From assembly GCF_013167455.1 (NCBI RefSeq), contig NZ_CP038328.1: a stretch of 64,000 bases of DNA. One strand, 5' to 3'. This document shows positions 8,023-19,755 of the stretch, in pieces (positions within the stretch are counted from its first letter, which is position 1; the number at the start of each line of letters is the position of its first letter). The position numbers and the translations under genes were made by a program. The DNA is from Escherichia coli O157:H7. Lineage in GTDB: Bacteria; Pseudomonadota; Gammaproteobacteria; Enterobacterales; Enterobacteriaceae. The notes under the pieces are model-generated. The model was not told where the DNA came from and did no database searches. It was given only the letters and a program-made list of their open reading frames with translations.

Positions 8023-11375
<3,353 letters not shown>

Positions 11376-11381
11376 GAGCGG

Positions 11382-11810
11382 TTAATCTCCCGTAAGTGGA
11401 ACTAACAGCACATCGACCTCACTTGAGGCAATCACTCTTTTCGCCGAGCAGGATGCTCGCGAAAAGAAACTGTGATTGTGATTACCGCAAATCACCAAAT
11501 CGAAATGATATTTGCGACAAACTTCCAGAATATGTTCGCTTAACTCACCGTAGGCAATAAACGTCTTGTCAACGGGATACCCCGCATCCTGAATTAACTT
11601 ATCAAGAAAGCTTTGCGTTTCTTCCTGCATCACGCTGCGTAAATCTTCAAGCATCGGCGCAGCTAATTGATTGTACATTTCCGGGTCGGAAGCGAGAGTA
11701 ATTAAACTGATGTGTCCCTTTACTGGCCTGGCGATAGATACCGCTTTTGCCAGCAGTTGCTGACTTTCCGGTGTAACCGCAACAGCGACAAGAATATTGC
11801 TATAGCTCAT
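11382..11810 (-). CDS. uspC: Universal stress protein C
   Basis: 142-aa UspA-family ORF; divergent from flhDC. Confidence 0.9.
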   Translation of the reverse strand: MSYSNILVAVAVTPESQQLLAKAVSIARPVKGHISLITLASDPEMYNQLAAPMLEDLRSVMQEETQSFLDKLIQDAGYPVDKTFIAYGELSEHILEVCRKYHFDLVICGNHNHSFFSRASCSAKRVIASSEVDVLLVPLTGD

Positions 11811-12589
11811 AACCTGTTCCTTATTCTGTGAACTTCAGGTGACATTAAAGCTTTACTCCTAATGGAGAAACGACGCAATCCCAACTCAGTCAAACAGGTA
11901 AATATTAGTCCGATTATTAGTAAAGACAATTAATCAATCACTCTCGGTGATCATATGATTTCAACTGTAATTATAAGAAAATAATGTACTGATTCCCCGC
12001 ATTAAACAAGTGGTTAATATATGCAAAACATTTTATTAACATTAAGTTGATTGTTGCCTTTCTTTGTATTTAATTAGTTTGTTGTGCGGTAAGTGTCTGT
12101 TTAAAAATAGCTTATCTGGTATTGCATGAAAGTGATTATTTATAGCAGATGATTATTTACGGTGAGTTATTTTAACTGTGCGCAACATCCCATTTCGATT
12201 ATTCCTGTTTCATTTTTGCTTGCTAGCGTAGCGAAAAACTTTTTAACAGATTGAAATACACCCAAAACAAAAGTATGACTTATACATTTATGTTAAGTAA
12301 TTGAGTGTTTTGTGTGATCTGCATCACACATTATTGAAAATCGCAGCCCCCCTCCGTTGTATGTGCGTGTAGTGACGAGTACAGTTGCGTCGATTTAGGA
12401 AAAATCTTAGATAAGTGTAAAGACCCCCTTCTATTTGTAAGGACTTATTAAACCAAAAAGGTGGCTCTGCTTATTGCAGCTTATCGCAACTATTCTAATG
12501 CTAATTATTTTTTACCGGGGCTTCCCGGCGACATCACGGGGTGCGGTGAAACCGCATAAAAATAAAGTTGGTTATTCTGGGTGGGAATA
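11811..12589 (+). promoter_or_regulatory. flhDC master-operon regulatory region and long 5' UTR
   Basis: 780-bp AT-rich intergenic region upstream of flhD; contains the CRP site at 12313..12328; no IS element present. Confidence 0.8.
12313..12328 (+). promoter_or_regulatory. CRP site of the flhDC promoter
   Basis: tgtgatctgcatcaca, perfect TGTGA-N6-TCACA; its centre lies about 270 bp upstream of the flhD ATG, consistent with the known -71.5 site and ~198-nt leader. Confidence 0.75.
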
Positions 12590-12940
12590 ATGCATACCTC
12601 CGAGTTGCTGAAACACATTTATGACATCAACTTGTCATATTTACTACTTGCACAGCGTCTGATTGTTCAGGACAAAGCGTCCGCTATGTTTCGTCTCGGC
12701 ATAAATGAAGAAATGGCGACAACATTAGCGGCACTGACTCTTCCGCAAATGGTTAAGCTGGCAGAAACCAATCAGCTGGTTTGTCACTTCCGTTTTGACA
12801 GCCACCAGACGATTACTCTGTTGACGCAAGATTCCCGCGTTGACGATCTCCAGCAAATTCATACCGGCATCATGCTCTCAACACGCTTGCTGAATGATGT
12901 TAATCAGCCTGAAGAAGCGCTGCGCAAGAAAAGGGCCTGA
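12590..12940 (+). CDS. flhD: Flagellar master regulator FlhD
   Basis: 116-aa product from [14 protein letters not shown]; the listed ORF begins 9 nt upstream at a GTG (119-aa form). Confidence 0.93.
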
Positions 12941-12942
12941 TC

Positions 12943-13521
12943 ATGAGTGAAAAAAGCATTGTTCAGGAAGCGCGGGATATTCAGCTGGCAATGGAATTGA
13001 TCACCCTGGGCGCTCGTTTGCAGATGCTGGAAAGCGAAACACAGTTAAGTCGCGGACGCCTGATAAAACTTTATAAAGAACTGCGCGGAAGCCCACCGCC
13101 GAAAGGCATGCTGCCATTCTCAACCGACTGGTTTATGACTTGGGAACAAAACGTTCATGCTTCGATGTTCTGTAATGCATGGCAGTTTTTACTGAAAACC
13201 GGTTTGTGTAATGGCGTCGATGCGGTGATCAAAGCCTACCGTTTATACCTTGAACAGTGCCCGCAAGCAGAAGAAGGACCGCTGCTGGCATTAACCCGTG
13301 CCTGGACATTGGTGCGGTTTGTTGAAAGTGGATTACTGCAACTTTCCAGCTGCAACTGCTGCGGCGGCAATTTTATTACCCACGCTCACCAGCCTGTTGG
13401 CAGCTTTGCCTGCAGCTTATGTCAACCGCCATCCCGGGCAGTAAAAAGACGTAAACTTTCCCAGAATCCTGCCGATATTATCCCACAACTGCTGGATGAA
13501 CAGAGAGTACAGGCTGTTTAA
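12943..13521 (+). CDS. flhC: Flagellar master regulator FlhC (zinc-binding)
   Basis: 192-aa ORF with Cys cluster CNCCGG...CSLC; immediately downstream of flhD. Confidence 0.95.
13452..13478 (+). promoter_or_regulatory. Sigma-28 (FliA) promoter inside flhC 3' end (motA/MotR promoter)
   Basis: TAAA-N15-GCCGATAT matches the sigma-28 consensus TAAA-N15-GCCGATAA. Confidence 0.6.
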
Positions 13522-13579
13522 CTGATACGGTGTGGCGCAACATTCCAGCAGCGGTAACGACGTACCGCTGCTTTTTTTT
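13486..13579 (+). ncRNA. motR: MotR-like sigma-28-dependent sRNA from the motA 5' UTR
   Basis: Sigma-28 promoter followed about 95 nt later by an intrinsic terminator upstream of the motA start; ends are approximate. Confidence 0.5.
13545..13579 (+). terminator. Intrinsic terminator between flhC and motA
   Basis: ccagcagcgg-taacgacgta-ccgctgc stem-loop followed by 8 T. Confidence 0.7.
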
Positions 13580-13647
13580 GCCCCAATCGCGCGTTAACGC
13601 CTGACGACTGAACATCCTGTCATGGTCAACAGTGGAAGGATGATGTC

Positions 13648-14531
13648 GTGCTTATCTTATTAGGTTACCTGGTTGTTCTCGGTACAGTTTTCGGCGGTTA
13701 TTTGATGACCGGTGGAAGCCTTGGAGCACTCTATCAACCCGCTGAACTGGTGATTATTGCCGGTGCAGGGATTGGGTCGTTTATTGTCGGCAATAATGGA
13801 AAAGCGATTAAAGGCACGCTGAAAGCGCTGCCGTTGCTGTTTCGTCGCTCCAAATACACCAAAGCAATGTATATGGATCTGCTGGCTCTGCTTTATCGGT
13901 TGATGGCGAAATCGCGGCAGATGGGGATGTTTTCGCTGGAACGTGATATTGAAAATCCCCGTGAGAGCGAGATCTTCGCCAGCTACCCACGCATCATCGC
14001 GGATAGCGTCATGCTTGATTTTATCGTCGATTATCTGCGCCTGATTATCAGCGGTCACATGAACACCTTCGAAATCGAAGCCCTGATGGATGAAGAGATT
14101 GAGACGCACGAAAGCGAGGCAGAAGTCCCGGCGAACAGTCTGGCGCTGGTCGGGGACTCACTTCCGGCGTTTGGTATTGTCGCGGCTGTAATGGGGGTCG
14201 TTCACGCGTTAGGTTCAGCCGATCGTCCTGCCGCCGAGCTGGGGGCGCTTATCGCACATGCGATGGTGGGGACTTTCCTCGGCATTTTATTGGCTTACGG
14301 ATTTATTTCCCCATTAGCGAGTGTTTTACGTCAGAAAAGCGCCGAAACCAGCAAAATGATGCAGTGCGTCAAAGTCACACTGCTTTCTAATCTGAACGGT
14401 TACGCACCGCCTATCGCCGTTGAGTTTGGTCGCAAAACGCTCTATTCCAGCGAACGTCCGTCGTTTATTGAACTGGAAGAGCATGTGCGTGCGGTGAAAA
14501 ATCCGCAACAACAGACGACAACCGAGGAAGC

Positions 14532-14535
<4 letters not shown>
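13648..14535 (+). CDS. motA: Flagellar motor stator protein MotA
   Basis: GTG start after GGAAGGA; 295-aa four-TM protein. Confidence 0.95.
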
Positions 14536-17427
<2,892 letters not shown>

Positions 17428-18035: not shown

Positions 18036-18062
18036 TAAAGTTTCCCCCTTCCTTGCCGATAA
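18036..18062 (+). promoter_or_regulatory. Sigma-28 (FliA) promoter of the tar-tap-cheRBYZ operon
   Basis: TAAAGTTT-N11-GCCGATAA is a perfect sigma-28 consensus about 30 bp upstream of the tar start. Confidence 0.8.
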
Positions 18063-18093
18063 CGAGATCAACTTGTTTTCAGGAAGGTGCCTT

Positions 18094-19755
18094 ATGATTA
18101 ACCGTATCCGCGTAGTCACGCTGTTGGTAATGGTGCTGGGGGTATTCGCACTGTTACAGCTTATTTCCGGCAGTCTGTTTTTTTCTTCCCTTCACCATAG
18201 CCAGAAGAGCTTTGTGGTTTCCAATCAATTACGAGAACAGCAGGGCGAGCTGACGTCAACCTGGGATTTAATGCTGCAAACGCGCATTAACCTGAGTCGT
18301 TCAGCGGTGCGAATGATGATGGATTCCTCCAATCAACAAAGTAATGCCAAAGTTGAATTGCTCGATAGCGCCAGGAAAACATTGGCCCAGGCCGCGACTC
18401 ATTATAAAAAATTCAAAAGCATGGCACCGTTACCTGAAATGGTCGCTACCAGTCGTAATATTGATGAAAAATATAAAAACTATTACACAGCGTTAACTGA
18501 ACTGATTGATTATCTTGATTATGGCAATACTGGAGCTTATTTCGCTCAGCCAACCCAGGGAATGCAAAATGCAATGGGCGAAGCGTTTGCTCAGTACGCC
18601 CTCAGCAGTGAAAAACTGTATCGCGATATCGTCACTGACAACGCAGATGATTACCGATTTGCCCAGTGGCAACTGGCGGTTATCGCGCTGGTGGTGGTAT
18701 TGATTCTGCTGGTGGCGTGGTATGGCATTCGCCGTATGTTGCTTACACCGCTGGCAAAAATTATTGCTCACATTCGCGAAATCGCCGGTGGTAACCTGGC
18801 GAATACCCTGACCATTGACGGGCGCAGTGAAATGGGCGACCTGGCGCAGAGCGTTTCACATATGCAACGCTCTTTGACTGACACCGTCACTCATGTCCGC
18901 GAAGGTTCAGATGCCATCTATGCCGGTACCCGTGAAATTGCGGCGGGCAACACCGATCTTTCCTCCCGTACGGAACAGCAGGCATCCGCGCTGGAAGAAA
19001 CTGCCGCCAGCATGGAGCAGCTCACCGCGACAGTGAAGCAAAACGCCGATAACGCCCGCCAGGCCTCGCAACTGGCGCAAAGTGCCTCCGACACCGCCCA
19101 GCACGGCGGCAAAGTGGTGGATGGCGTAGTGAAAACGATGCATGAGATCGCCGATAGTTCGAAGAAAATCGCCGACATTATCAGCGTAATCGACGGTATT
19201 GCCTTCCAGACTAATATCCTCGCGCTGAATGCCGCTGTTGAAGCCGCGCGAGCGGGTGAACAGGGCCGTGGTTTTGCCGTGGTGGCGGGCGAAGTGCGTA
19301 ATCTTGCCAGTCGTAGCGCCCAGGCGGCAAAAGAGATCAAAGCTCTCATTGAAGACTCCGTCTCGCGCGTTGATACCGGTTCGGTGCTGGTCGAAAGCGC
19401 CGGGGAAACAATGAACAATATCGTCGATGCTGTCACTCGCGTGACTGACATTATGGGCGAGATTGCATCGGCATCGGATGAACAGAGCCGTGGCATTGAT
19501 CAAGTCGCATTGGCGGTTTCGGAAATGGATCACGTCACGCAACAGAACGCATCGCTGGTGCAGGAATCAGCTGCCGCTGCAGCTGCGCTGGAAGAACAGG
19601 CTAGTCGTTTAACGCAAGCGGTTTCCGCGTTTCGTCTGGCAGCCAGCCCACTCACCAATAAACCGCAAACACCATCCCGTCCTGCCAGTGAGCAACCACC
19701 GGCACAGCCACGACTGCGAATTGCTGAACAAGATCCAAACTGGGAAACATTTTGA
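18094..19755 (+). CDS. tar: Methyl-accepting chemotaxis protein II (aspartate/maltose chemoreceptor)
   Basis: 553-aa product from [14 protein letters not shown] signalling domain; C-terminal NWETF pentapeptide. Confidence 0.95.

Follow-up and report, generated by a model that had tools for sequence, protein, structure and literature searches.

At the end of flhC, the window (the whole 64-kb stretch of DNA that was analysed) holds a promoter and a terminator which together almost certainly represent the published and annotated motR gene of E. coli, and are thus not a new unit. The small RNA MotR, 95 nt long, occupies positions 13485-13579 on the + strand, with A13485 as its +1 and the end of the U tract as its 3' end. 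Nothing is added here on flagellar regulation itself, as MotR, its promoter, its terminator and the readthrough into motAB-cheAW are all covered by the literature and by the annotation of the K-12 reference. The interest of the finding is rather that a real regulatory RNA, omitted by both PGAP and Rfam 15, can be recognised from nothing more than the raw sequence. Moreover, the strain in which the MotR-rpsJ pairing was defined bears a derived allele, predicted to pair better than the ancestral one present here, and this may be a small lead for the specialist.

Identity, promoter and terminator of MotR

The RefSeq record of K-12 MG1655 (NC_000913.3) contains an ncRNA named motR (b4828, 'small RNA MotR'), 95 nt in length, placed at 1977208-1977302 on the minus strand and overlapping the last 37 nt of flhC. 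When aligned to the window, b4828 matched 13485-13579 over its full length, with 94 of 95 nucleotides identical and no gaps. The motR cloning primer SM001 (Melamed et al. 2023), which begins ACAACTGCTGG / ACAACTGCTGGATG, likewise corresponds to the window from 13485 onward. The initial annotation had described this locus as a 'MotR-type' 5'-UTR sRNA; its reading as an sRNA is supported by these data, but the label turned out to be too weak, the locus being MotR itself. The transcript of about 95 nt that it predicted agrees with the distance from the +1 at 13485 to 13579, which is exactly 95 nt. Also its remark that MotR is usually absent from gene lists was borne out, as the PGAP records of E. 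coli show only flhC and motA at this place. No Rfam 15 model matches MotR, and a scan of positions 11000-16000 on both strands against Rfam 15 (E <= 1) gave no match.

The RNA begins within the tail of flhC, terminates between flhC and motA and is read from the same strand as motA, while the region as a whole is the flhDC-motAB-cheAW region of E. coli. flhC itself (12943-13521, + strand) is an ORF of 192 aa, corresponding to the annotated flhC of E. coli genomes and preceded by flhD, which ends at 12940. The last 37 nt of flhC are at the same time the first 37 nt of MotR. They include a small 5' hairpin (13492-13503, + strand), in which MotR nt 8-10 pair with nt 17-19 inside the flhC coding sequence; as this hairpin is invariant, covariation speaks neither for nor against it.

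Two observations concern the DNA further upstream. K-12 MG1655 carries IS1H upstream of flhD, and this element is absent from the window: BLAST segments against K-12 abut at window positions 12285-12292, flanking K-12 positions 1978503-1979270. In the window, the regulatory region of flhDC is thus without this interruption. The antisense RNA AsflhD (b4839), when its coordinates are transferred from NC_000913.3, falls at about 12392-12611 on the minus strand, overlapping the start of flhD.

The last 70 bp of flhC hold a sigma-28 (FliA) promoter (13452-13478, + strand), which starts exactly 70 bp upstream of the end of the gene. Its letters, read directly from the window, are TAAACTTTCCCAGAATCCTGCCGATAT, consisting of a -35-like TAAA at 13452-13455, a spacer of 15 nt and a -10 element GCCGATAT at 13471-13478. 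In comparison to the sigma-28 consensus, TAAA-N15-GCCGATAA, there is one mismatch, located at the last base, and the near-perfect FliA promoter TAAA-N15-GCCGATAT which the initial annotation had placed in this part of flhC is thus indeed present. Six nucleotides separate the end of the -10 element (13478) from the +1 at 13485. The same motif has been published as the motR/motA promoter (PMC10578931). Sites with at most one mismatch are rare, as only 2 were found in the 64-kb window on both strands, with 0.29 expected from dinucleotide-preserving shuffles. The other site, at 18036-18062 (+ strand), is a perfect match to the consensus (TAAAGTTTCCCCCTTCCTTGCCGATAA). It follows cheA- and cheW-sized ORFs, lies directly upstream of a tar-like ORF of 560 aa (18073-19755) and is presumably the tar operon promoter, so that it serves as an internal positive control for the motif search. 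Both matches are located where class-3 flagellar promoters are expected.

A Rho-independent terminator is found at 13547-13579 (+ strand), composed of a stem-loop (13547-13572) and a U tract (13572-13579), and it is the top-scoring terminator-like site within positions 12000-15000. Its stem of 10 pairs, 6 of them G-C, encloses a loop of 6 nt and is followed by the tail TTTTTTTGCC; the T run at 13572-13579 is 8 long, its first T being the partner of A13547 in the stem. The claim of a strong intrinsic terminator with 8 T between flhC and motA is therefore accurate. Folding of the RNA yields this hairpin in the MFE structure as well as in the centroid one, and a 3' hairpin with a U tail is in keeping with Hfq binding. 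The terminator is not bidirectional, as a T run is missing behind the stem on the minus strand. A 45-aa ORF lies antisense across this terminator (13478-13615, minus strand); it is probably spurious, a mechanical ORF with no support, and was rejected.

As to its surroundings, the terminator is situated between the flhC stop (13521) and the GTG start of motA at 13648. The hairpin begins 26 nt past that stop and is the sole terminator-like site on the way to motA, which makes it very likely that flhDC transcripts end there as well. In terms of position, MotR thus closes the flhDC unit at its 3' end and at the same time forms the 5' leader of motA. The remainder of the motA 5' UTR (13580-13647, + strand) contains the motA ribosome-binding region, and scanning of this interval between the terminator and motA revealed no promoter-like site. 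It follows that transcripts starting at 13485 would either stop at 13579, as MotR, or continue as the mRNA of motAB-cheAW, of which motA (13648-14535, + strand) is the first gene.

Conservation of the promoter-terminator unit

Within the species, a 401-nt query across the locus matched 5376 of the 5426 complete E. coli genomes with identities of 90-100%; O157:H7 was among the strains that matched at 100%, and flhC and motA were annotated beneath these matches. For other genera, we scanned a collection of species-representative genomes with one exact pattern, comprising the promoter and the flhC codons that follow it. This gave 120 loci, all but 2 of which (Moraxella and UASB14) encode the C-terminus of FlhC in the same frame, and 2 further loci were too short to analyse. 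The promoter is thereby conserved in the same flhC reading frame at about 117 loci of other Enterobacterales, a number to be read with the fact that these loci were retrieved by a pattern containing the promoter motif itself.

At 82 loci, the hairpin AGCAGCGG...CCGCUGCU is followed by 6-9 U, giving a predicted RNA of 89-96 nt from the +1, and two Mangrovibacter loci show, by eye, a shorter version of it. The genera and species bearing the hairpin include Citrobacter, Salmonella, E. albertii, Enterobacter, Kosakonia, Cedecea, Buttiauxella, Lelliottia, Franconibacter, Izhakiella and Erwinia. At the level of sequence, then, promoter, spacing and terminator are conserved in many genera of Enterobacteriaceae and Erwiniaceae. 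In an alignment of 42 sequences the terminator helix is paired in 99.3% of cells, and 3 of the 10 stem pairs, in the upper stem, show compensatory double changes (G-C to A-U, U-A to C-G). Because the rows were picked partly by a regex for the lower stem, conservation there is partly by construction, and only the variation of the upper stem is informative. Control helices in which the 3' partner was slid by 1-3 columns scored far lower. Within a non-coding linker that is otherwise variable, a GUGUGG block is kept across genera.

A different picture emerged for 33 loci of Pectobacterium, Dickeya, Brenneria and Serratia, in which the promoter in flhC is kept without the terminator of Enterobacteriaceae, other structures being present instead. 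This pattern fits what has been published, namely conservation of the sRNAs in some of the Enterobacteriaceae and a wider conservation of the motR promoter (PMC10578931). Several loci of Pectobacterium, Brenneria and Samsonia are examples of a sigma-28 motif in the flhC tail with the terminator absent. In Pectobacterium and Brenneria we noted a conserved hairpin of 13-16 bp, GAAUCUAUCACUG...CAGUGAUAGAUU, which lies roughly 55-95 nt past the predicted +1 and has behind it a stretch rich in pyrimidines but no clean U run, and several Serratia loci have a GC hairpin immediately after the stop codon. These hairpins may be different leader elements. There is also variation in E. coli itself: in strain N21 the U tract aligned to 13572-13579 is broken (TTTCTTTT vs TTTTTTTT) and the loop is changed too, a variant that might raise readthrough into motA.

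Function of MotR and variation in its seed

In K-12, MotR has been described by Melamed et al. (eLife 2023) as an RNA of about 95 nt made by termination in the motA 5' UTR (PMC10578931). Its sigma-28 dependence was demonstrated there on northern blots, among them those of a fliA deletion strain, the band of about 95 nt was enriched by Hfq co-immunoprecipitation, and longer bands were ascribed to readthrough of the MotR terminator, by which the motR promoter also drives motAB-cheAW (PMC10578931). Hence the northern blot of wild type versus fliA mutant with mapping of transcript ends, suggested in the initial annotation, is already published for K-12. The RNA forms RIL-seq chimeras with specific targets in K-12 and was also detected by Hfq RIL-seq in EPEC and Salmonella; it pairs within the fliC and rpsJ coding sequences, with a rise in the levels of fliC mRNA and of S10 (PMC10578931). 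Overexpression of MotR led to more flagella in a nusB-dependent manner, and the chromosomal M1 mutation, a change of 3 nt in the seed, led to fewer flagella with MotR levels unchanged (PMC10578931). The authors proposed a feedback in which antitermination by S10/NusB acts on the motR terminator, its readthrough setting how much MotR is made relative to operon mRNA; they also reported that a compensatory mutation in rpsJ failed to restore binding, and called the mechanism of the broad effects unclear (PMC10578931).

Transferred to the window, the following scheme is highly probable. Sigma-28 RNA polymerase would start at A13485 from the promoter in the last flhC codons; a fraction of the transcripts would end at the terminator, releasing the 95-nt MotR, and the remaining ones would read through to give motAB-cheAW mRNA. 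MotR, with its strong 3' hairpin and U tail, would bind Hfq, and its region around nt 43-54 would pair inside the coding sequences of rpsJ (encoding S10) and fliC. Such pairing would raise the levels of S10 and of flagellin mRNA and result in more flagella, possibly via S10-NusB antitermination of long flagellar operons. The present analysis establishes the sequence identity of the RNA, its position, promoter motif, terminator and conservation across genera. Its sigma-28 dependence, size, Hfq binding, targets and phenotype come from the K-12 literature, and we infer that they would be the same in this strain, in which one nucleotide of the seed differs.

This nucleotide may deserve attention. 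The seed, or target-pairing region, lies at 13527-13538 (+ strand; MotR nt 43-54, ACGGUGUGGCGC), and the loss-of-function positions of M1, nt 46-48, correspond to 13530-13532 (GUG to CAC, primers SM467/468). The sole difference from K-12 is MotR nt 49 (13533), which is U here and A in K-12, and which adjoins the M1 positions on their 3' side. MotR binding on rpsJ has been mapped at about +150 of the coding sequence (PMC10578931). With the K-12 allele, MotR nt 43-54 are predicted to form an uninterrupted 12-bp duplex with about rpsJ +141..+152. In the same register, U49 stands opposite the second position of a UUC (Phe) codon, resulting in a central U·U mismatch. The predicted energy of the local rpsJ duplex is -22.4 kcal/mol for K-12 (A49), -18.7 kcal/mol for the window (U49), -15.1 kcal/mol for a U49 + C54A haplotype and -11.2 kcal/mol for the M1 mutant. 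U49 thus costs the predicted duplex 3.7 kcal/mol vs the K-12 allele, leaving it weaker, not abolished. These energies come from local fragments, as duplexes predicted between MotR nt 1-62 and the complete rpsJ mRNA extended too far to be informative. A comparison of the alleles on K-12 fliC was uninformative: several sites had similar energy, M1 reached equal scores at other places, and the text of the paper does not state the fliC site. On the positional route to fliC in the matching O157:H7 genome, a P2-like prophage intervenes.

Among complete E. coli genomes, the exact MotR 30-mer with U49, as in the window, occurs in 586, including O157:H7 strains, and that with A49, as in K-12, in 2973, about 1800 genomes having others. 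Beyond the window haplotype, U49 is present in an E. coli haplotype that adds C54A; the haplotype GGUGUGGCGAA, third after those of the window and of K-12, has U49 too. In other genera GUGUGG, hence U49, is the consensus, and in the alignment A49 is confined to the K-12 row. As U49 is the cross-genus consensus, K-12 carries the derived allele, which is also the one pairing best with rpsJ. The rpsJ 30-mer at the target site, on the other hand, is identical in 5419 of 5426 genomes. The seed of MotR therefore varies naturally and its rpsJ target does not. If this matters, one could speculate that the link between MotR and S10 is stronger in K-12 than in strains like this one, the conserved function of MotR lying elsewhere (e.g. 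in fliC or other targets), though we consider this rather unlikely.

The same data bear on a reading in which MotR acts little, if at all, as a regulator in trans. The hairpin could be a cis-acting leaky terminator, i.e. an attenuator, that sets the amount of motAB-cheAW mRNA, with the short RNA chiefly a by-product whose trans activity is weak or dispensable in this strain. The weakened rpsJ duplex of U49 would suit this idea, as would the proposed tuning of the MotR to operon mRNA ratio by S10/NusB-dependent readthrough (PMC10578931), and, with the promoter-free stretch upstream of motA, expression of the operon from this promoter does require readthrough. However, a seed mutation of 3 nt that lowers the number of flagella at constant MotR levels in K-12, and the binding of K-12 MotR to Hfq and to specific RIL-seq partners (PMC10578931), argue for activity in trans, and a GUGUGG block kept across genera in a variable non-coding linker would be superfluous for a pure attenuator. 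We thus regard this reading as very improbable, while an attenuator role and a trans-acting sRNA role are not mutually exclusive. It is hardly credible that a plain flhDC terminator and a plain motA promoter are merely juxtaposed by chance, the 95-nt species being non-functional noise: although the hairpin very likely serves flhDC too, and although Pectobacterium, Dickeya, Brenneria and Serratia have the promoter with no such sRNA arrangement, this is already contradicted for K-12 by published northern, Hfq co-immunoprecipitation, RIL-seq, reporter and chromosomal-mutant data (PMC10578931), and both the length of the RNA and its seed-like block are tightly conserved in many genera.

MotR among known small RNAs

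A regulatory MotR is accordingly the reading we retain, and its closest relative is b4828 of K-12 MG1655, with which locus, +1, length, promoter and terminator are all shared, and from which it is set apart by the A49 to U49 exchange next to the M1 positions. Small RNAs made from promoters inside a coding sequence and ending at the terminator of that gene are exemplified by MicL (in cutC) and DapZ (in dapB). MotR resembles them in that its promoter is within a coding sequence and its end is the terminator after flhC, but it differs in that its transcript can run on into a downstream operon, so that its terminator is also a point at which readthrough is regulated.

With the flagellar sRNAs derived from the 3' UTRs of uhpT, fliC and flgL, MotR shares the regulon and the UTR-derived logic, whereas it arises itself from a 5' UTR by premature termination (PMC10578931). 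One of them, UhpU, has a promoter inside a coding sequence as MotR does, and another, FliX, has an effect on fliC and the S10 operon opposite to that of MotR (PMC10578931). Finally, the leader of Salmonella mgtCBR (Choi et al. 2017, cited in PMC10578931) is similarly a short RNA that acts in trans and results from termination ahead of the first gene of its operon. MotR is without an evident ligand- or translation-sensing leader, and its control would lie with the sigma factor and, possibly, with S10/NusB antitermination.
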